Source: a virus
Direction: 5' to 3' (one strand)
Length of the DNA stretch: 38,331 bases
UHGV virus genome: UHGV-0375243
Shown: positions 1 through 38,331 of the stretch, one piece after another
Layout of the letters: each line of letters opens with the position of its first letter
How positions within the stretch are numbered: position 1 is the first letter of the stretch
The notes under the pieces: generated by a model
Seen by the model: only the letters and a program-made list of their open reading frames with translations
The model's database searches: none
Told to the model about the DNA's origin: nothing
Made by a program: the position numbers and the translations under genes

Positions 1-176
1 GCGCAAGCGGTTTTTTTGTATGTGAAATACAGCTACACCTATTCAATGGTGGGCTGTGTGGGGGCATCGAAAGATGCGCCAGTATCCGTTTAGGCTGGTA
101 CGCCAACCCCATACAGTTCACCACCAGTAATTGGCGTTGCTAGTGGTGATTACCCAAACTAAACGGAGTAATCATT

Positions 177-881
177 ATGACTAATCAGTTTCCTATCAAT
201 TTAAATCCTGAAATCGTTGTTAACAATAGAGGTCAAGCCGTTACCTCTTCTCAATCTGTGGCTGCATTCTTTATCAAGCGCCATGATGATGTTCTAAAGA
301 AAATACGAAACCTTGATTGCTCACCAGAATTTCATAACCGCAATTTTGCGGAGATGTCCATTAACCTAAAAATAGGCAATGGAGCCATGAGGAAAACACC
401 ATTCTTTCAAATGACTAAAAATGGATTTGTATTTTTAGTTATGGGTTTTACTGGAAAGAAAGCTGCTCAATTTAAAGAAGCCTATATTTCCGAATTTGAT
501 AGAATGGAAGCCGAACTTGCAGAAGAACGTTATTTATCAATTGGTAATTCAACAGATAAAAAAGACCTCATAGCACTTGTCGATCAACTGCAACGTACTA
601 TCCATGAAGGTGAGTTTATCCCTGCTGGGCAAGTTGCCAAAGAATATAGCTTTCCTCGCACTCGTAAAAATCGCATCGAATTACTGGATGATTTTATGCG
701 TAACCCGAAGAAAGATGTTTTACACAATCTCCTCACCTATCTAAAAAAAGACGGTCACAACGTTGATGAAGCTGAAAGAACACTGCGTTGGGTTCGTGAA
801 TCACTGTTAGAAATGAACGGTGCAATGCAAGAAATACGCACACATCATCAATATGTAGAAAGTTTGATTAGTCGGTTATAA
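177..881 (+). CDS. Rha-family phage regulatory protein or antirepressor
   Basis: The N-terminus (AVTSSQSVAAFF-KRHDDVLKKIRNL) matches the phage Rha N-domain. An RBS (GGAG) lies 8 nt upstream, and a terminator follows the gene. Confidence 0.65.
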   Translation: MTNQFPINLNPEIVVNNRGQAVTSSQSVAAFFIKRHDDVLKKIRNLDCSPEFHNRNFAEMSINLKIGNGAMRKTPFFQMTKNGFVFLVMGFTGKKAAQFKEAYISEFDRMEAELAEERYLSIGNSTDKKDLIALVDQLQRTIHEGEFIPAGQVAKEYSFPRTRKNRIELLDDFMRNPKKDVLHNLLTYLKKDGHNVDEAERTLRWVRESLLEMNGAMQEIRTHHQYVESLISRL

Positions 882-17057: not shown

Positions 17058-17218
17058 AATTCACCCATAGATTAAATTAACCAACATTGCATATTAAATT
17101 AATAATACATGTTATTTGACAATATTGAAAACTATAACTACCATTTTGGTTATGCAATGCCACTGCATTTTTTCTCGGTATTGTTACCACAACAGCGTGC
17201 TTTACCTTAGGATTGTTT

Positions 17219-17244
17219 GCCCTCTACTCAAGAGGGCTTTTTTT
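17219..17244 (+). terminator. Plus-oriented intrinsic-terminator-like hairpin between terL and the portal gene
   Basis: The hairpin GCCCTCT-ACTCA-AGAGGGC is followed by TTTTTTT, which is canonical only on the plus strand. It overlaps the terL stop codon. Confidence 0.5.
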
Positions 17245-18727
17245 ATGCGAATGGATCGTAATCTGAATTGCTGACATTAACGCCAGAATGAAGTGAAGAG
17301 TAATTTCTATCTATTTTGGTGACTGGATAGGCGAATGTCAGTGCGAGCGCATCACCTTTACCCGGTGAACGACCAAGACGTTTTTTAATTTCTGTTTTAT
17401 CTTCTAGTACAATCTTGCTATCGATAACACGAACTTTGTATTCACCACATGACAAATCATCTGCGGTTTCCTGATCATCAATAGCCCCGCCAATTTTAAG
17501 CCATGTCTTAACGCTGTTATACATCTCACCACGTTTGTTTAGCATTTGTGGATCTGTTGATGCACCACCAAACTTAACTAAACGCCACACGCGCCCCCAA
17601 CTTGTTCCAATAGAGTGAATACCGGTACCGTAACCAAAATCGATATGCACAGCGTCAGCCTTGTATTGATCTTCAAAGTCAGCAATGCGCTTTGCCATAA
17701 CAACATCGTCAGTTGTTTTAAAGCCCGTCCACAAACATTTACTAAATAAACCTTGGCGCAGATAAATCACCGCATCATCAGCACCGGAGTATGCAGGGTC
17801 AACACCAATAATTACGGGAGCATGAGCAACCTCTGCCTGTGTGACAATGCGCTTCATGGCTTCATCCGTCAAACCTGTTGGAATAAACTGCAACTCTGAT
17901 GCTGACGGGAACACACCACGAACACGGACTTTAAAGAAGTCACTATCTTCGCCGTAGTCCTCTTCCCAGTTTTTAATCTGCTCTTTGTTGCTACCTTCAA
18001 CGGTACGGCTATCAATCTGCTTAGTATTCCAACGATGTTTAAACTTACGAAAGCACTCACGAAAACGCCCTGTGTTACGGGTTGGGTTACCAAATGCAAT
18101 CCAAATGATTTCGGTACCTTCATCCGTTAACGCCCCTTCTGCAACTTCCCATACCAGATCGGCAATATTAGACGCTTCATCAAACACGAGGATGATACGC
18201 TTGCCTTTATTGTGAAGCCCTGCGAATGCCTCTGTATTGTTCTCTGACCACGGTACCGCATCAGCACGCCAAGCATTAGCATGATTAGGATCGTTTGAGT
18301 AGATAGCTGTCTTAGTGCAAGTAAACCAATTATTAGTTAGTGATAGGCGTTGCCACTTCGCTATTTCTGGCCACGTTTTAGTACGTAGCTGATTTTCGGT
18401 GTTAGCAGTGACGACTACCTTACAATCTTCGCAGGTATCCATACCCCACTTGATGATCATTGAAATAAATGCAGATTTACCGATACCGTGACCAGAAGCA
18501 CGAGCAAGTAACAATGGCTGGTGGCGTGTCTTTGGATTGCGTAGATGTTCACCGATTTCATTTAATGCTTCGGCTTGCCACTGACGAGGACCATTGTATT
18601 CTTCAAGTTCTCCACCAGCTTCACCCCACGGAAATGCGTAATACGCATAGCCTAATGGATCATGCGTAAATGATGCGATATCTTCAATGAGTTGTTCTTC
18701 TGGTGACTTCTGTAAAGCTTCTGACAT
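17243..18727 (-). CDS. terL: Terminase large subunit
   Basis: A Walker A motif (ASGHGIGKSAF) is present, the protein is 494 aa, and it is coupled to the upstream TerS gene. Confidence 0.75.
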   Translation of the reverse strand: MSEALQKSPEEQLIEDIASFTHDPLGYAYYAFPWGEAGGELEEYNGPRQWQAEALNEIGEHLRNPKTRHQPLLLARASGHGIGKSAFISMIIKWGMDTCEDCKVVVTANTENQLRTKTWPEIAKWQRLSLTNNWFTCTKTAIYSNDPNHANAWRADAVPWSENNTEAFAGLHNKGKRIILVFDEASNIADLVWEVAEGALTDEGTEIIWIAFGNPTRNTGRFRECFRKFKHRWNTKQIDSRTVEGSNKEQIKNWEEDYGEDSDFFKVRVRGVFPSASELQFIPTGLTDEAMKRIVTQAEVAHAPVIIGVDPAYSGADDAVIYLRQGLFSKCLWTGFKTTDDVVMAKRIADFEDQYKADAVHIDFGYGTGIHSIGTSWGRVWRLVKFGGASTDPQMLNKRGEMYNSVKTWLKIGGAIDDQETADDLSCGEYKVRVIDSKIVLEDKTEIKKRLGRSPGKGDALALTFAYPVTKIDRNYSSLHSGVNVSNSDYDPFA

Positions 18728-19299
18728 TACTCAATGCTCCCTTGCTGAGCACGTTTACGAGCAGATGCCAACTTATCAGCCAATGATACATTTACATCGA
18801 CCTGTACCCTGTCTCTAAAGGCATTGATATCAACATGCTTACCAATCAGCTCAAGTACCTTAATTTTATCCAGTAACTTTACTTTTTTAATACGTGTATC
18901 ACCGTCAATATCAATGATATCGAAAGCAGCAACACTTTTACGCCAAATAGGTGACCATTCAGATATTGGTTTAATATCGCCTTTCTCATTAAGAATATCG
19001 GCAATATCTGCATCAAGCATATCAACCAAGCGTTTGAGTACATTGTCAGCACTCATCTTGGTTCGCTTATTGCGCTGTTGCATAAGTTGTGCGATACGCT
19101 CTTGAATACGGGGATCAGCCATTAGCTGTGATGCGCGCTTGCAAGCACTGCCAGATGCATATCCAGCAGAGATTGCAGCATCAGTTTGATTATCGGGGGA
19201 TTTGATATATTCCTGACAGAAACGTTCCATCTTGTCGTTGATAGGCGTTGGCTGTCGTGCAGGTTTCTTTCTTGGTCTTTTGATAGTCATAATCATCAC
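18727..19299 (-). CDS. terS: Terminase small subunit
   Basis: The N-terminal HTH motif (ERFCQEY...AAISAGYA) is typical of the Terminase_2 family. The gene lies immediately upstream of terL. Confidence 0.65.
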   Translation of the reverse strand: MMIMTIKRPRKKPARQPTPINDKMERFCQEYIKSPDNQTDAAISAGYASGSACKRASQLMADPRIQERIAQLMQQRNKRTKMSADNVLKRLVDMLDADIADILNEKGDIKPISEWSPIWRKSVAAFDIIDIDGDTRIKKVKLLDKIKVLELIGKHVDINAFRDRVQVDVNVSLADKLASARKRAQQGSIE

Positions 19300-19364
19300 C
19301 TCTTTGGTTATTATGGCTATTCAAAATATAACATTCAAATTTTATAAGCATTACCTAAACTTAT

Positions 19365-19390
19365 TTGGTTGACAAAATCGCGTCAACCAA
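19365..19390. promoter_or_regulatory. Perfect palindrome TTGGTTGAC-N8-GTCAACCAA upstream of the late operon
   Basis: The two 9-bp arms are exact reverse complements. A third copy, GTCAACCAA, lies at 19413..19421. Confidence 0.5.
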
Positions 19391-19394
19391 ATTT

Positions 19395-19754
19395 CTATTT
19401 TGCTATCGTTTTGTCAACCAAGTTAAGCTGTAATTCGCGATATCCATAAGTTACCCAACATTTAGCATCACCAGATAAACAGCATTGCTGAACGGGTAAC
19501 TGCTCACCACAACGCTCACACTTACGCTTAGATAGTTCCTCAGCTTGTCGCTTATACTCCGCATCATCTTTACGAATAAGCATCTGCAAGTATTCAACAT
19601 TATCATACGGTTCACGACCAGGCATACGTAGAACACAATTACGCTGTAACATCTCCAGCTCTTGATTATCCACCAGCAATTCAATCTTTGTTACACCAAG
19701 TTCCTTTTGGCGCTTACGTTGTAGTGCCTTACGTTCAGCAGGTGATTTAGCCAT
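19395..19754 (-). CDS. Cys-rich putative regulator (candidate late-gene activator)
   Basis: A 119 aa protein with a CERCGEQ...QQCCLSGDAKC metal-binding-like cluster. It is the last early gene before the terminase operon. Confidence 0.3.
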   Translation of the reverse strand: MAKSPAERKALQRKRQKELGVTKIELLVDNQELEMLQRNCVLRMPGREPYDNVEYLQMLIRKDDAEYKRQAEELSKRKCERCGEQLPVQQCCLSGDAKCWVTYGYRELQLNLVDKTIAK

Positions 19755-21313: not shown

Positions 21314-21709
21314 TTAACGAATGGTAATAAGTTCATGATTTTCTGTATTTTCAGGTAACGTTACCCCTATCTTCCCCTGCTCACCCCAAAGCTTTGACGC
21401 GCTGATATTCCACACCCTGCAATCTTCATCAAAGATGGCGTCCATAACGGCTTTAATCAGATTATCGACATCAGGACGTTGCTGGTGGGGTTTGCCATTC
21501 ATCTCAATACGTTTTTTCTTGCTCCATGATTTAGGCATAGGGATAACAAACGTTAGGTGAGCACCGCTTTCCGGTAGCGTAAAACGGTTAGCTCTCATCT
21601 CGTCACAAAAAGCGTGGTACTTAACGACAACGGGTCTTTTCTTCCATGCGTCACGTTGTGTCATACGTGGCTTCGGTACAGGGTTGATATAATAAATTTG
21701 CTGTTTCAT
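21314..21709 (-). CDS. rusA: RusA-family Holliday junction resolvase
   Basis: The motifs PVPKPRMTQRD and DVDNLIKAVMDA match RusA signatures. Confidence 0.7.
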   Translation of the reverse strand: MKQQIYYINPVPKPRMTQRDAWKKRPVVVKYHAFCDEMRANRFTLPESGAHLTFVIPMPKSWSKKKRIEMNGKPHQQRPDVDNLIKAVMDAIFDEDCRVWNISASKLWGEQGKIGVTLPENTENHELITIR

Positions 21710-22119
21710 GCGCGTACCGCCACCAGCATCGCGTTCATACGGTTATGAATATCAGCAATCTTTCCATGCTGTAACGGTGGTAAGCTCTTTCTGACGTAGG
21801 TTAGTGAGCCTTTCTGACAGATAACATGCTTATCCGTAGGTTTTGCTGGCTTCTTTGTCATCAGTGATGCTTCTTTTTTGATATCTAATTCACGTAGGCG
21901 CTCCATGTAATCAGGCGTTAGTTTGTAGACATACCCAATGCCAACTACCGCTTTGCGTTCTACAACGGAGCTTTCAATCAATTTAATCAGTGCATAATTG
22001 GTTGTTGAGCGGTTCTTCTTTCCCTTGAGATCAGAAGCAATTGCCGTTATCTCGTTAACTGACAATGATTTTTTATTGTCACGTAAAATATCAACAACAA
22101 AATCCTGCATAAATTTCAT
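21706..22119 (-). CDS. Hypothetical protein
   Basis: A 137 aa ORF. Confidence 0.3.
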   Translation of the reverse strand: MKFMQDFVVDILRDNKKSLSVNEITAIASDLKGKKNRSTTNYALIKLIESSVVERKAVVGIGYVYKLTPDYMERLRELDIKKEASLMTKKPAKPTDKHVICQKGSLTYVRKSLPPLQHGKIADIHNRMNAMLVAVRA

Positions 22120-22365
22120 ATACGATAACCCTTAAGAGATTAATCATTATGGTTAATATATCCAATTTGGTTATGTTTTCAAGTATAAAAAAACAGAGTT
22201 TTTAATTAAACTCATACCCACTTAAAACGCTCTCAAATCGCCTATACGCTGTTTTCACAACTCAGTCACCCAATCGCATACCTACAACAAATAAAACTCA
22301 CTAGTGTTTATTACGCTAAGGATTTTGATATCCAACAACCCCTATTCGATTTTTAGTTTACGAAA

Positions 22366-24268: not shown

Positions 24269-24547
24269 TTATCGAATAAAGAAATTGATTAATTGCTCTC
24301 TGGTTGTATCTGCACCGAACTCAACACAAATATCATATAACTTATTGAGTTTACTTAGTGAAGGCTTACGTTTTGCATAGCGTAGCTGATGTGATAGATA
24401 CAATTGGCTATACCCCGTTCTTTGAGAAAATGCTTCTCTTTGCTTAATCGTTAAGCTATTCCAAAATTTTTTAAAGTCGAAAACTTCCATAATTTCACCA
24501 ATTTGATTAACCAATAAATAATAGTAACCGTTTAGGTACTTTACCAA
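24269..24547 (-). CDS. Cro-like HTH regulator (YdaS-like)
   Basis: An HTH motif (IKQREAFSQRTGYSQLYLS) is present. The start codon appears to be TTG. The gene is divergent from the CI-like gene. Confidence 0.45.
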   Translation of the reverse strand: MVKYLNGYYYLLVNQIGEIMEVFDFKKFWNSLTIKQREAFSQRTGYSQLYLSHQLRYAKRKPSLSKLNKLYDICVEFGADTTREQLINFFIR

Positions 24548-24624
24548 AAGGGTTATTTGTTTGTTTAATACACCATAACTTAATCAAATTTGTATAAATA
24601 ATAGACACCAAAGGACTTGGAAAA
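24548..24624. promoter_or_regulatory. Divergent switch region between the cro-like and cI-like genes
   Basis: A 77-bp AT-rich intergenic region with a TGTATAAAT extended -10-like element ahead of the cI-like gene. Confidence 0.35.
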
Positions 24625-25233
24625 ATGAAAAGCATTGCTGAAATTAGAAAAGATAACCTGATTTATATTATTGAACGCTACTACAACGGCAAACAAAAAT
24701 TACTTGCTGATGCGTTAGGCGTAGCACCAAGTATGATCTCTCGTTACCTATCACCAAAAGATTTAAAAAGCCATCGTGAACTCACCGATCCAATGTCACG
24801 TAAAATTGAATATGTGACTAGAATTAGCAAATATTGGATGGATGTAGACCATTTAAAAGAAGGTCATGCAGAGTCAGAAAAAGAAGAATATATTCCGACT
24901 GAAATTGGCAAGATACTCTCAGATAACATCACAACATTCATGTTAAATGATGGAATAAAATCAAGAGTTAAGCTTTCTGTCGATTCAGGGCTTGCACAAT
25001 CAACAGTTAACCGCATTATCAATTGTGAAGCCAGCGCCACCGCTGAAAGCATTGATGCCATTGCAAAAGCAATGGGTCGCCAAGCCTATGAACTACTGAT
25101 CCCTAAAAATGATAAAGGCACTATTAACTATGATAGAAGAGCCTATTCAAAACTTCCCGCCAGCGAACAAGCCGCTATTGAAAACTTCATTGAATTTATC
25201 ATTAATAAAAACCAGCCCATCTCCCACGACTAA
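24625..25233 (+). CDS. CI-like repressor with two HTH_XRE domains and no S24 peptidase domain
   Basis: The two HTH motifs are QKLLADALGVAPSMISRYL and QSTVNRIINCEASATAESIDAIAKAMG. Confidence 0.5.
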   Translation: MKSIAEIRKDNLIYIIERYYNGKQKLLADALGVAPSMISRYLSPKDLKSHRELTDPMSRKIEYVTRISKYWMDVDHLKEGHAESEKEEYIPTEIGKILSDNITTFMLNDGIKSRVKLSVDSGLAQSTVNRIINCEASATAESIDAIAKAMGRQAYELLIPKNDKGTINYDRRAYSKLPASEQAAIENFIEFIINKNQPISHD

Positions 25234-25314
25234 CCCTCTCCATTAAAAAGAAGTCATATCTTGGCTTCTTTTTACTCTTAATAAATAATTAAATTTCATA
25301 GTGATAAAAACAAA

Positions 25315-25333
25315 CATAACCATATTGGTGATT
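25315..25333. promoter_or_regulatory. Operator-like dyad, copy A (CATAACCATATTGGTGATT)
   Basis: Near-palindromic half-sites ATAACCA and TGGTGAT. The site lies 17 bp upstream of the -35 element of the recE promoter. Confidence 0.5.
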
Positions 25334-25349
25334 TATTTGTTTTTTACGG

Positions 25350-25377
25350 TTGACAATGGTTAATTTATGGTTATGAT
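25350..25377 (+). promoter_or_regulatory. Sigma70-like promoter for the recombination operon
   Basis: TTGACA, a 16-nt spacer, then TATGAT. The spacer contains TGGTTA half-sites. Confidence 0.55.
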
Positions 25378-25389
25378 TAAAAGTATAAG

Positions 25390-25406
25390 TTAACCAATAC
25401 GGTTAA
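25390..25406. promoter_or_regulatory. Perfect palindrome TTAACC-AATAC-GGTTAA
   Basis: It shares the TAACC half-site with the operator family. Confidence 0.4.
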
Positions 25407-25458
25407 TTTGCTCTTTAACAATATGGATAAAAGAGACTGATTTTTTAATGCGCTCAGA

Positions 25459-25477
25459 CATAACCAATTTGGTGATT
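25459..25477. promoter_or_regulatory. Operator-like dyad, copy B (CATAACCAATTTGGTGATT)
   Basis: It matches copy A at 17 of 19 positions. Confidence 0.5.
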
Positions 25478-25481
25478 AGTC

Positions 25482-25643
25482 ATGATCTTTTATATCAAAG
25501 ACGGTAAGCATGTATTTACCTTATCTGGCTTAAATGAGTCACAGTCATTTGACAATTTTAAAGCCGGTATTGAGTGGGCTTATGTAAGAAAGCTCGCATT
25601 ACAAACAGAACAATTAGTAGGTAAACAAAATGTCAGACACTAA
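25482..25643 (+). CDS. Small ORF (53 aa) overlapping the recE start
   Basis: An ATG at 25482 gives MIFYIKDGKHVFTLSGLNESQSFDNFKAGIEWAYVRKLALQTEQLVGKQNVRH. It is below the size cutoff of the ORF track. Confidence 0.25.
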   Translation: MIFYIKDGKHVFTLSGLNESQSFDNFKAGIEWAYVRKLALQTEQLVGKQNVRH

Positions 25644-33080: not shown

Positions 33081-33377
33081 ACACCGTCAAAAAATAGATT
33101 TTATTGCGACGGTGTTTGGTTGAAATTATTTTTATTTATAAATGACACCGTCACATATACCGTCATTTTTTTCGGTTCTTGTCAACCATTACTAACCATA
33201 GAAAACAAAAAAGCCACCAGTAACATACTGATGGCTCTTGGTTTTTTAACCTTTATCAACTATTGCTGATAAACGTTATTTTATTCCCACTCAATTATAT
33301 TCTAGTAATTTAACTCACTGATAAATATAAATTATATCTAAATTAGATATCACTAACACCGTCACCGATACCGTCAT
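33081..33377. repeat. attP-like region with arm-type ACCGTCA repeats
   Basis: Direct ACCGTCA copies lie at 33083, 33147, 33159, 33358 and 33369. An inverted pair AACACCGTC/GACGGTGTT lies at 33080..33116, directly upstream of int. Confidence 0.45.
33201..33247 (-). terminator. Terminator (mostly minus-oriented) after the lysis cassette
   Basis: The hairpin GCCACCAGT-AACAT-ACTGATGGC is flanked by an A-run upstream and a T-run downstream on the plus strand. Confidence 0.5.
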
Positions 33378-35086: not shown

Positions 35087-37321
35087 TTAAGATGAGTAAA
35101 AATCATTACTATTACTTGAATTAAATATAGTAATCATTCTTTTACCTGTTATTGTTTCAGAATTCTTTCCATTGATAGATGAGTATTGGTTCAAAGCCTG
35201 TATCTTAATTCTTTTTTCTGGGTTTTTTACAATTAATGTATACGAAAAATATAATCCTTTTCCGTATGTTAATGATGGTAAATTAACAGTAACCTCATCA
35301 TATAATGAGTTATCTATAATATAATTCTCAAAACCATTATTTAAATCAAAAGATTTATCACTTACTTCTAATGTTTGCCTTTTTAAAAAAACTAAATTAG
35401 CTCCATTTACACATGAGTAAATTTGATTTTTCAGTGTGTAAATAGAATCATGAAAATTAAGACCAATAAAGCAAGTCCCGCTTGTAACTTGAACAACCCT
35501 TCCTATGTGATTTACAAATGTGTTATCAGAAAGTAAAATGCCAGAGTTAAAACTATTGCTAGAATTTTTTGAATTAATTAAAACTCCTGTTTCTCTATCA
35601 GAAAAATACCCACACATACTAAATCTATTATTTTTAATTTCACCACATGATCCTGTATACCACACATGCGAAATTGAATGTTCAACTACGTTATTTGATA
35701 CAATACAATTAGTAATATTATGTGTAAATGTATTTCCGTCACCACCATAACTTACCGTGTCTATACTTATAGGATATCCGCAACCAAGAATATAATTACC
35801 ATCAATAAGTATATTTCTTGAGTCAATACCAGCCGTTACACCACGACTTAAATTTAAATATCTATTATTTATAGATGTCAGCCTATTTGTATAAGCAACA
35901 AAAGGCTTACTAGATGAATTTAATGATAGTATACATATATGAGTTATATTTGCCACTCCATTAATATTTATTTCAAAAGAGCTCAATGAATTAACTTTTG
36001 AATAAAAAACATTATGATTGTTTTTTGACAAAATAGATGAATTAACACTAATACTAATATCACCATCAGAAATTACATATATTGCACAAGGATTATTAAA
36101 AAATAAATTATTATTAAAAACCAACTTACCATTACCACTTACAATATTTTTATTTATATTTACCCCTCTCTTATCCCAAGAATCATCGGATTCAAGATAG
36201 TAAGCAGGAAGTACGTAGTATGGAGATGATGAATCAAAAAATTCATTTCTACATTCAATAGATATCCCCATACCTGAACTAACATGAGTAAATTCAGTAC
36301 TATCAATTATAGAGTCTTTAATCTCAAATCTAGTTTTATTATTGCTTTTATACCAATTTGTACCATTCCCGTATGCAATAGGCCCATTATCTGTTTTTGT
36401 TATACAATCATATAAACCAGTAACTCCATCTGCTGATATTGTTCCATTACTTTCACGATTACTTGATTTAAAACAACAATATTTTGAATTTTTAAAAACG
36501 CAATTATATGCGCGATAATGTCCAAGCAATGTATATATGTATGGGCTATTTAGTTTTGATTTAGAATCAAAAGAACAACCAATAAATATTATATCACCTT
36601 CTTTATTCCTAGTGTCGAATAAACCTATTTTACCATAAATACCTTCGTGTTTAATCGTACTATCTCCTGAATATAATATTTTTGTTTCATTCCCTATTAT
36701 TGTTAATTTTTTTGATTCAGAGAAATATGGTTTATCCATTTCTATCTGTCCTATATCACCAATATAGCACTTACCATACGCAATCTCTGACATTTTTAAT
36801 GCGTGATAAAAATCACCATTAAAGTTCAATATATTATAATCTGGAGAATACTTTAGTGATCCAATATTAATTAAATTATATTCGTCTGGTTTTGTATTTG
36901 GGGTAATAGTTATTTTATTTTTAGTACTGTTCTTATAATAAAACCCTTCATAAAAACATGATTCATTAACTTCTATGTTACCACCTAAATCAAATATTGT
37001 AGGGTTATTTTTTATAATACTTACCCATTTACCTTCAGGGTTATCTGGTGACCAAATACCTCCATCATTTCGAGGATCATCACCCAATTCATGTGGCAAA
37101 ACACCTCGGTATAGATACCATTCATTATTATACATAACAATTTGGTTTTGCTTTGATAGTATTTTACCTCTTTCCCATAAACCAATTGGTGATAAATAAC
37201 AATCCCCCATATAATTTATAATGTAATTAGAGACATATTCACCTAAATATTCTTTATTTACTGCATTCTTTTTTATTTTTTGGGTTATCAATATTACTAA
37301 TACGATTACCTTTAGCATCAT
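35087..37321 (-). CDS. Tailspike distal part (beta-helix-like receptor-binding or depolymerase region), out of frame with the N-terminal part
   Basis: An N/S/I/Y-rich protein with repetitive beta-helix-like segments. GC is about 28-30 percent. The 5' end overlaps ORF 37254..37724 by 68 nt, shifted +1 in frame. Confidence 0.5.
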   Translation of the reverse strand: MMLKVIVLVILITQKIKKNAVNKEYLGEYVSNYIINYMGDCYLSPIGLWERGKILSKQNQIVMYNNEWYLYRGVLPHELGDDPRNDGGIWSPDNPEGKWVSIIKNNPTIFDLGGNIEVNESCFYEGFYYKNSTKNKITITPNTKPDEYNLINIGSLKYSPDYNILNFNGDFYHALKMSEIAYGKCYIGDIGQIEMDKPYFSESKKLTIIGNETKILYSGDSTIKHEGIYGKIGLFDTRNKEGDIIFIGCSFDSKSKLNSPYIYTLLGHYRAYNCVFKNSKYCCFKSSNRESNGTISADGVTGLYDCITKTDNGPIAYGNGTNWYKSNNKTRFEIKDSIIDSTEFTHVSSGMGISIECRNEFFDSSSPYYVLPAYYLESDDSWDKRGVNINKNIVSGNGKLVFNNNLFFNNPCAIYVISDGDISISVNSSILSKNNHNVFYSKVNSLSSFEININGVANITHICILSLNSSSKPFVAYTNRLTSINNRYLNLSRGVTAGIDSRNILIDGNYILGCGYPISIDTVSYGGDGNTFTHNITNCIVSNNVVEHSISHVWYTGSCGEIKNNRFSMCGYFSDRETGVLINSKNSSNSFNSGILLSDNTFVNHIGRVVQVTSGTCFIGLNFHDSIYTLKNQIYSCVNGANLVFLKRQTLEVSDKSFDLNNGFENYIIDNSLYDEVTVNLPSLTYGKGLYFSYTLIVKNPEKRIKIQALNQYSSINGKNSETITGKRMITIFNSSNSNDFYSS

Positions 37322-37724
37322 AGTAGTTCGAGAGATAGGTAGGTTTTCGTAGACTTAGAGAGAAAGTACCTAATGCTTTTTGAATTAACATCGTTAGATA
37401 ATCAAAGGCATCTTCATGTACTTCAGCAAAGAATTTCCCCTGATTACGTAAGTCAGTTTCTTGTACAACAGGTAAATCGCGTTCTAATAATATCTTCCAG
37501 CCTTTGACTAATGGTTTATTTAAAACCACCTTACCGCCATGATAAGAACCTGCACCAACAATAGTGTAATCAGTACCATTCTTTAATGTAGTTTCATTAC
37601 CTTCGCTGTCAGCAACCACCACGGTCAAATGCTTACTTTCAAAGATACGGAATCGAAAATCAAAATCCGTTGTTACGCCATTGCCTACATACTCTTCATG
37701 GCTTAGTTCAGTAGATACCGTCAT
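37254..37724 (-). CDS. Tailspike N-terminal particle-anchor domain
   Basis: A conserved N-domain (MTVSTELSHEEYVGNGVTTDF...TDLRNQGKFFAEVHEDAFDYLTMLIQ). It ends prematurely within an A6-T-A6 tract. Confidence 0.55.
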   Translation of the reverse strand: MTVSTELSHEEYVGNGVTTDFDFRFRIFESKHLTVVVADSEGNETTLKNGTDYTIVGAGSYHGGKVVLNKPLVKGWKILLERDLPVVQETDLRNQGKFFAEVHEDAFDYLTMLIQKALGTFSLSLRKPTYLSNYYDAKGNRISNIDNPKNKKECSK

Positions 37725-37882
37725 TGCTCATCTCCTCTGGTGTTAATGAGGATATGATACGTTTAACCATAAAATATATCCATATTTGCAATAATGGTTA
37801 TCAAATAGATAATTAGATTAACCATTTAGATAAACATTTTAATGCATTTACGTTATTATAGTTTGCGTGACCGTTTTCATTA

Positions 37883-38149
37883 GTGAGGACTTTAGCAATG
37901 GAAAAGAAGTATGAATACCCTGCACCAGCTAACTATCCAGATGTAGTGAATACCGATGAAGGGATTGAAAAATTAATTACAAAATCAAACCTTGAAGCAC
38001 TTTTAACAAAGATGGGAGAAGATGGTCATGATGTATCAGCTCCACTTGTAGAACTGATAGCAATGAGAAACTTTATAGTTCAAAAGATGAGAGGCAATAA
38101 AAATATAATACCGTTAGTGGAATGTATTTTGTTTGAGCTTAAGAAGTAA
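37883..38149 (+). CDS. Hypothetical protein
   Basis: An 88 aa ORF with an RBS (AGGA) and a terminator downstream. Confidence 0.3.
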   Translation: MRTLAMEKKYEYPAPANYPDVVNTDEGIEKLITKSNLEALLTKMGEDGHDVSAPLVELIAMRNFIVQKMRGNKNIIPLVECILFELKK

Positions 38150-38218: not shown

Positions 38219-38237
38219 CATAACCATTTTGGTAATT
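38219..38237. promoter_or_regulatory. Operator-like dyad, copy C (CATAACCATTTTGGTAATT)
   Basis: It matches copy A at 25315 at 17 of 19 positions and copy B at 25459 at 16 of 19. It lies about 290 bp upstream of the Rha gene if the window is circular. Confidence 0.45.
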
Positions 38238-38331
38238 TACAACCCCTTATTTATGCGCCATAGTGATTATACATCAGCAAAATCTGATGTCGGGATTGGC
38301 GTCCTGAATCTATCTAAACGGCGCATACACC

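Follow-up and report, generated by a model that had tools for sequence, protein, structure and literature searches.

Among the described systems, the one closest to the subject of this analysis, a family of short dyads scattered over the 38,331-bp virus genome UHGV-0375243 (the window, i.e., the whole stretch of DNA analysed), is the Rep/Ant switch of the Salmonella phage SPC32H, reportedly the subject of studies by Kim & Ryu in 2013 and by Kim et al. in 2016. The Rep repressor of this phage, represented by entries 5D50 and 5D4Z of the Protein Data Bank (PDB), consists of a DNA-binding domain at the N-terminus, a dimerisation domain in the middle and a C-terminal domain that serves in tetramerisation and in binding of Ant, using Phe187 and Phe190 (PMC9986798). 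Palindromic sites are bound by a Rep tetramer, with the members of each DNA-binding pair coming from different dimers, and Ant disassembles the tetramer (PMC9638917). Overexpression of the ZX5/phiV10 homolog of Rep lowered endolysin and holin transcripts by 99.97-99.99%, an effect opposed by an antirepressor, in a study in which the operators were not mapped (PMC9782041). The ant gene of SPC32H (86 aa) and the tailspike gene diverge, and the gap between the two contains a LexA box, CTGTATAAACATACAG. A second point of reference is presented by phages P1 and P7, in which the C1 repressor acts at many dispersed operators, and in which the immI operon (c4 antisense RNA, icd, ant) is placed behind a C1-controlled promoter. 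A third is the isrK-orf45-anrP arrangement of Gifsy-1, in which read-through and a trans-acting short IsrK gate translation (PMC4825925).

In the window, the dyads are probably (we would put this at about 85%) operators of a master repressor, the product of rep (24625..25233, + strand, 202 aa), from the SPC32H-Rep family known in epsilon15-like podophages, and the switch as a whole belongs to the already known SPC32H-type Rep/Ant kind. As in SPC32H, a full-length Rep homolog with the Phe residues of the tetramer interface conserved and without an S24 autocleavage domain is encoded, along with an Ant homolog; the replication genes and a cro-like gene read one way and rep and recE/recT the other, with int farther on and with ant divergent from the tailspike gene, in an order that agrees with that of phiV10 as well; the operators share the 5-N5-5 geometry and occupy the same gaps; and the attP core (ATTCCCACTCAAT at ~33282, in an att region at 33197-33294) is that of the guaA 3' end, the site reported for epsilon15, phiV10 and ZX5 (PMC9782041). 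The differences from SPC32H are in the Rep itself (~30% identical, with another recognition helix), in the half-site (TAACC versus TTACC), in the distance between the first two operators, O-A and O-B, which is one helical turn longer, in the lack of a LexA box from the intergenic DNA, in the addition of an isrK-C4-Rha cassette with its own operator, and in the host, which is Proteus. What sets the switch of the window apart is the different half-site, the absence of LexA control and the added, putatively RNA-gated Rha cassette under the same operator. The CI repressors of lambda, P22 and 434 are similar in that a helix-turn-helix (HTH) protein reads short dyads, with several operators at divergent promoters and cooperative binding between separated sites. 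However, the Rep of the window has neither an S24 peptidase nor RecA-stimulated self-cleavage, its oligomerisation domains are different, and its inactivation would be by an antirepressor.

The dyads and their probable reader

The dyad is 17 bp long, ATAACCA-N3-TGGTTAT, with the core TAACC-N5-GGTTA. The original prediction, of a recurring palindromic operator family, quoted CATAACCATATTGGTGATT (25315), CATAACCAATTTGGTGATT (25459), CATAACCATTTTGGTAATT (38219), TATCCAATTTGGTTATG (22159), CTACCATTTTGGTTATG (17138) and TTAACCAATACGGTTAA (25390), all of which are present at these positions, and the family is borne out by both its over-representation and its intergenic bias. Allowing one mismatch, TAACCANNNTGGTNA has 18 strand-matches (12 places) versus 0.96 expected and a shuffle maximum of 5. 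The 17-bp consensus ATAACCANNNTGGTTAT has seven sites with up to two mismatches versus 0.22 expected from shuffles of 200-bp blocks, in which local composition is kept, and 16 sites with up to three mismatches versus 3.3 expected, nine of these 16 being intergenic. Intergenic DNA makes up 6.2% of the genome and accommodates six of the best seven sites (binomial P = 4e-7), so that the motif does not occur at a similar frequency in coding DNA. The half-site TAACCA is found in 41 copies, 18 of them intergenic, and two motif matches within the recE-like gene (26004, 26055) are about the number expected by chance. A pattern derived solely from other phages, TWACC-N5-GGTWA, has 16 matches in the window versus 3.7 expected. 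The full list of 17-mers comprises those at 17137, 19295, 22140, 22158, 24494, 24524 (weak), 24540, 25316, 25390, 25460, 37818 (degenerate) and 38220; of these, the sites at 19295-19311 (terS 5' end) and at 24494-24510, 24524-24540 and 24540-24556 (the gap between rep and the cro-like gene) had been overlooked before. A literal search of the literature for the operator strings gave no match.

As to the reader, the protein encoded at 24625..25233 had been proposed for this role, and it is the right candidate, being a full-length homolog of the SPC32H Rep. In a phmmer search of the PDB it matches 5d50_A with an E-value of 8.3e-24, residues 1-197 aligning to 2-197, and 5D4Z over the C-terminal half; 5d50 and 5d4z are also the top Foldseek matches, a weak cross-check as the AlphaFold model used for the query is poor (pLDDT 58). 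The alignment extends across all three segments of the SPC32H Rep, with F188 and F191 aligned to Phe187 and Phe190. The absence of an S24 autocleavage domain, proposed earlier, agrees with the Pfam matches, which are to HTH families exclusively, HTH_3 among them at residues 114-154. The description of the protein as a dimeric one with two HTH domains needs correction: in the solved homolog the DNA reader is N-terminal, the part matching HTH_3 dimerises, and palindromes are bound by a tetramer. Following the domain roles in the SPC32H Rep, the HTH_3 match would represent the middle dimerisation domain and not a DNA reader; the N-terminal HTH probably reads DNA, and the C-terminus probably serves in tetramerisation and Ant binding. 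Rep has annotated relatives, 31-39% identical, in the "repressor" genes of podophages like epsilon15, phiV10, SPN1S and SPC32H, of the genus Uetakevirus.

The strongest argument for Rep as the probable reader of the dyads is comparative. SPC32H, phiV10 and BUCT554 have zero similarity to the window at the level of megablast. SPC32H nevertheless carries ATTACC-N5-GGTAAT dyads at positions matching those of the window: three between rep and recE, surrounding a TTGACA promoter, three in the gap between rep and the cro-like gene, two after the replication genes, and single ones ahead of terS, between terL and the portal gene, and between ant and the tailspike gene. A matching 5-N5-5 pattern surrounds rep in phiV10 and BUCT554, of which 8.5-kb regions around rep were compared, and a prophage of Arsenophonus, whose Rep is 61% identical, has ATAAAC-N5-GTTTAT at matching places. 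Across these phages the recognition helix of Rep co-varies with the half-site: the helix is QANLVNRW or SQNLVNRW in the phages of Salmonella, E. coli and Enterobacter, with the half-site TTACC, APSMISRY in Proteus (the window), with TAACC, and APNVISRY in Arsenophonus, with TAAAC. In addition, a Rep paralog encoded on a chromosome (contig L005), whose HTH region is identical, is preceded at 25 bp from its start by a perfect site, TAACCAAAATGGTAA, the surrounding DNA being otherwise unrelated.

Predicted operators along the genome

The predicted operators overlap seven promoter-like elements, which are matches to consensus hexamers. One of these elements is TTGACA-16-TATGAT at 25350..25377 (+ strand, 11/12 consensus positions), heading the operon that runs from the open reading frame (ORF) at 25482 through the recE-like gene to recT; this is the element that had been described as flanked by the first two sites, and it is indeed found between them, as a consensus match. 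Operator O-A (ATAACCATATTGGTGAT, 25316..25332) is centred 26 bp upstream of its -35, O-B (25390..25406) is immediately 3' of its -10, 74 bp (7.05 turns) from O-A, and O-C (ATAACCAATTTGGTGAT, 25460..25476) has a right half that also serves as the Shine-Dalgarno sequence of ORF 25482, the third SPC32H site occupying the equivalent place. In five of five phages (the window, SPC32H, phiV10, BUCT554 and that of Arsenophonus) the centre of O-A is 26-27 bp before the -35 (TTGAC[A/T]). Between O-A and O-B the enteric phages have 62 bp (5.9 turns), and those of Proteus and Arsenophonus 73-74 bp (7.0 turns), longer by one helical turn; thus both sites stay on the same face, a phasing that fits one tetramer bridging two operators. 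The Proteus variants are too alike for informative footprinting, except in showing a module boundary that begins exactly at O-A. Within the spacer region of the 25350 element, TGGTTA occurs twice in direct orientation (25359-25364 and 25370-25375), as part of ATGGTTA direct repeats 11 bp apart within 25356..25378, the second of which overlaps the -10; these repeats are retained in the Proteus variants and absent from SPC32H.

On the other side of rep, the gene in the Cro position (24269..24490, - strand, 73 aa) is the ortholog of SPC32H_042 and phiV10p41, and homology to these places its start at the ATG at 24490 (MEVFDFKK...). A TTG start at 24547, that of a mechanically called 92-aa ORF, is over-extended (24491..24547) and was rejected. 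With the start at 24490, two operators leave 'coding' DNA, and the sites at 24494-24556 are intergenic. Of these, TTCACCAATTTGATTAA (24494..24510) lies over the +1/Shine-Dalgarno region of a leftward promoter-like element (24547-24518, - strand), at about +1, and two abutting sites, TAACCGTTTAGGTAC (weak) and TTACCAAAAGGGTTA, occupy 24524..24556, with the -35 of the element within the latter, at 24540. The corresponding gap of SPC32H has a matching operator pair, 17-18 bp apart.

Farther along the leftward genes, adjacent operators TTAATCATTATGGTTAA and ATATCCAATTTGGTTAT (22140..22174) cover the spacer, the -10 and the +1 of a leftward element, TTGAAA-16-TATATT (22182-22155, - strand), ahead of 21706..22119 and rusA; syntenic site pairs are present in SPC32H, phiV10 and BUCT554. 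Another operator, ATCACCTCTTTGGTTAT (19295..19311), comes right after the -10 of an element just ahead of terS (19338-19310, - strand) and overlaps the terS ribosome-binding site, SPC32H having TTACCAAAACGGTAA 20 bp before terS. Between this promoter/operator and the gene for a phrog_536 'transcriptional regulator' (19395..19754) is a long hairpin, ATTTGGTTGAC-N8-GTCAACCAAAT (19363..19392), which may be a terminator that late-gene activation must overcome. In the terL-portal gap, ACTACCATTTTGGTTAT (17137..17153) overlaps the -10 of TTGACA-17-TACCAT (17116-17144, + strand), an element antisense to the late genes, with a terminator downstream (17219-17237). In the same gap SPC32H has an operator beside an antisense TTGACA, a tRNA-Arg and an ORF. 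The stretch 17116..17245 (+ strand), antisense to the late operon, is a candidate for a small RNA of ~95 nt, with GCCCTCT..AGAGGGC-T7 as terminator; it folds with a z-score of -2.3, and searches for an Rfam family or a tRNA gave no match.

Upstream of ant, pairs of TAACCAT and ATGGTTA had been pointed out in 37725..37882. The half-site at 37765 turns out to be peculiar to the window, all 30 other distinct variants having TTTAACTA; what holds is a degenerate operator, TTAACCATTTAGATAAA (37818..37834), abutting the -35 of the promoter-like element of ant (37831-37859, + strand). The core of this dyad (37819-37833) is conserved in 31 distinct variants, of which L070 reads TAACCAATTAGGTGA, and the ant-tailspike gap of SPC32H has a perfect 17-bp palindrome, ATTACCTGTAAGGTAAT.

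The proposed switch and its alternatives

The mechanism that we propose for Rep draws on homology, synteny and co-variation; the earlier suggestion that the sites form one regulon is supported. By analogy with the family, the N-terminal HTH domains of Rep would read both half-sites, and a tetramer would allow one molecule to hold two operators at once. Judging from the positions of the sites, Rep in a lysogen would shut the early promoter of recE/recT, via three operators, the leftward promoter of the cro-like and replication genes, the internal promoter after the replication genes, the promoter ahead of terS, the antisense promoter in the terL-portal gap, and the promoters of ant and of isrK-C4-Rha. 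Release would come, as the homology suggests, from Ant binding the C-terminal domain of Rep and taking the tetramer apart.

Several observations weigh against this interpretation. The promoter-like elements are hexamer matches, and we count this against it. The sites at 24494, 24524 and 37818 are weak, two motif matches lie inside recE, and the AlphaFold model of Rep is poor, with its pLDDT of 58. The right half-site varies (TGGTGA, TGGTAA, TGGTTA, TGGATA), the left half, CATAACCA, being far better conserved, and such a bias is not obviously the product of a strictly symmetric reader. Finally, in the Arsenophonus prophage the O-B position (L087 6717..6733) is occupied by TTAACCAAATAGGTTAA, i.e., TTAACC..GGTTAA, and not by the prophage's own TAAAC dyad; the other operators there are of the TAAAC type, and this O-B resembles the O-B of the window, so O-B might be read by another protein. 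The Arsenophonus O-B may reflect either a recombined promoter module or a second reader for O-B. Neither the left-half bias nor the TGGTTA repeats between the 25350 hexamers nor the Arsenophonus O-B dyad follows from the assignment of the dyads to Rep.

A different reader is in fact the subject of one alternative, that the small protein in the Cro position reads the sites, mainly or also, and that the family reflects a lytic regulator. In lambdoid switches operators shared by CI and Cro are the rule, and every relative conserves the gene in the Cro position and its divergence from rep; three sites lie in the gap between the two. However, the protein matches zero Pfam DNA-binding families, the orphan chromosomal rep paralog has its perfect upstream site with no cro-like gene beside it, and the half-site co-varies with the N-terminal helix of Rep. 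We consider such a role doubtful, and it would be compatible with control by Rep.

Another alternative concerns the extent of the regulon. Only the sites of the immunity region (24494-25476, perhaps also 22140-22174) would work, with those at 17137, 19295 and 37818 being look-alikes or serving in looping or packaging. These three are single sites with two to four mismatches, at a stringency (three mismatches) at which ~3 chance sites are expected, and the match at 19295 is inflated by its partial coincidence with the Shine-Dalgarno sequence GAGGTGA. However, the diverged DNA of SPC32H has sites at all three places (ahead of terS, between terL and the portal gene, between ant and the tailspike gene), and the Proteus variants retain all three, making a purely local regulon unlikely. 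That the dyads are sites of a transcription factor of the Proteus host and not of a phage protein, as a superficial likeness of the core ACCA-N3-TGGT to some host-factor sites, such as that of NtrC (TGCACCA-N3-TGGTGCA), might suggest, is highly improbable, as equivalent sites shift their half-site between phages in step with the helix of the phage Rep, the flanks of the dyad are A/T and not GC, and the places where the sites concentrate are the immunity region of the phage and the promoter of the rep paralog itself.

Antirepressor-type genes, the paralog and the host

With Rep as the probable master repressor, the question is what would release it. Induction through a Rha antirepressor had been suggested. 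The part of this suggestion that stands is that the Rep family is inactivated by an antirepressor (PMC9638917, PMC9986798, PMC9782041); the true Ant ortholog is another ORF, at 37898..38149 (+ strand), not flagged before. This ORF encodes an 83-aa ortholog of the SPC32H antirepressor and, as in SPC32H, is divergent from the tailspike gene; its product matches 5D50_E with an E-value of 3.6e-8 and SPC32H Ant at 31% identity in pairwise BLASTP (E 5e-14), and falls in phrog_450. The cognate antirepressor is thus the small Ant, not Rha, as far as sequence can tell. No LexA box of the form CTGT-N8-ACAG is found in the intergenic regions of the window, nor in 31 variants of the region upstream of ant (37725..37897), and a LexA input to ant or to the Rha cassette was rejected on this ground.

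The cassette 3' of ant spans the junction of the window ends and consists of an operator and promoter, at 38220, an isrK-like small RNA with its terminator, a C4 antisense RNA and a gene for a Rha-domain protein. The ends of the window join, as indicated by a terminator hairpin, CCGC-GCAA-GCGG-T7, formed across the junction, and by the DNA of relatives, which is unbroken from ant via isrK to C4. The operator ATAACCATTTTGGTAAT (38220..38236) abuts the -35 of a promoter-like element, TTTACA-17-CATAGT (38236-38264, + strand), whose predicted start is also where the isrK-like RNA begins. The 5' part of this RNA is at 38271..38331 (+ strand), and it continues into 1..17, the site of the terminator. 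The copy in the window being split by the junction, the isrK family (RF01394) is scored in contiguous relatives, at 72.4 bits in L003 and 66.9 bits in L054. The C4 antisense RNA (RF01695) follows at 42..128 (+ strand; 77.3 bits versus a gathering score of 45), and the last gene of the cassette, at 177..881 (+ strand), encodes the Rha-domain protein of 234 aa (PF09669, E 2.8e-25). The third of the sites described earlier had been placed upstream of the Rha gene across the junction; a cassette crossing the junction does exist, but the operator is at the promoter of the isrK/C4 leader, not directly before Rha. In L003-type Proteus phages, the isrK-C4-Rha cassette comes directly after rep and has two operators.

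Similar arrangements are found in the other systems introduced above. With P1 the window shares the scattered (here predicted) operators of one repressor, one of them at the putative promoter of a cassette with a C4 RNA and an antirepressor-type gene. However, C1 and Rep are not related, P1 has asymmetric operators versus the symmetric 17-mers of the window, the cassette has in addition an isrK-like small RNA and a Rha-type protein, and the phage is an integrating podovirus versus a plasmid prophage. With Gifsy-1 it shares a small RNA of the isrK family, with its own terminator, ahead of an antirepressor-type gene; the window differs in having a C4 RNA between isrK and the protein gene, a predicted Rep operator at the promoter and no evident link to antQ.

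The C-terminus of the Rha protein (residues 155-229) falls in phrog_450, the same PHROG as Ant (E 4.9e-6), with weak pairwise BLASTP matches. That it is a clear Ant domain is unsupported, as a PDB search of it gave no Ant match. A role for Rha as an antirepressor of Rep is thus unproven, its C-terminus being weakly Ant-like. Both antirepressor-type genes appear to be under Rep control, and from this control and the absence of a LexA box the switch looks like a double-negative loop, with a trigger other than the LexA input of SPC32H. The missing LexA box raises the question of the inducing signal for these prophages.

Orphan Rep paralogs, 80-91% identical and different in the C-terminal tail, are encoded in several Proteus chromosomes (L005 9959..10609, L004, L088 6001..6624). 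The gene adjoins the phage attB and converges with guaA-guaB, in a prophage-free neighbourhood of host genes that include one of the RlaP family; it is also found beside prophage ends in L006, L044 and L045, and it is not found in P. mirabilis ATCC 29906. A broader proposal, which we offer as speculation and think improbable, combines a LexA-deaf, rewired switch, in which Rep represses both Ant and an isrK/C4-gated Rha, with an orphan paralog that acts as an Ant-resistant immunity factor or as a partner in mixed tetramers. If this were true, the switch would be a double-negative, RNA-gated bistable one, and the paralog, with its identical DNA-reading region and different Ant-binding tail, would either guard the integration site or form mixed tetramers with the phage Rep.

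Taken together, the sites described here would map all operators of a prophage that is frequent in the urinary-tract pathogen Proteus mirabilis. They would also extend the repressor network of the SPC32H type to about seven promoters, beyond the immunity region, conserved from the phages of Salmonella and E. coli to those of Proteus and Arsenophonus. Helix and half-site occur in three natural combinations (TTACC, TAACC, TAAAC), which offer a series for studying and engineering the specificity of a non-canonical tetrameric repressor.

As to the phage itself, the window is a circularly permuted genome of an epsilon15/phiV10-like temperate podophage of Proteus mirabilis, with 38.9% GC, ~94% of it coding, and with the late and replication genes on the - strand and the early recE/recT operon on the + strand. 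Its rep is 100% identical to a copy in a prophage of Proteus mirabilis ATCC 29906 and to those in dozens of IMG/VR prophage contigs; a megablast of the window against the phage collection gave no close relatives. An origin in Pasteurellaceae, prompted by a sequence at the window start, CAAGCGGT, resembling an uptake signal sequence (USS), was considered and ruled out, as there are zero USS copies and the host is Proteus. The tailspike is represented by two overlapping minus-strand ORFs, 35087..37321 (744 aa) and 37254..37724 (156 aa), with an overlap of 68 nt. The 156-aa ORF is an N-terminal module, matching just the first 150 residues of tail proteins of 650-1080 aa, and the arrangement could reflect a split gene, a frameshift or an error of sequencing. 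Chi octamers of the E. coli type, GCTGGTGG, are present in 17 copies (6 on the + and 11 on the - strand, positions 1607 to 31544) versus an expectation of 0.59 and a shuffle maximum of 3; 15 of the 17 are in the minus-strand late/replication half, and this excess may be a protection against RecBCD.

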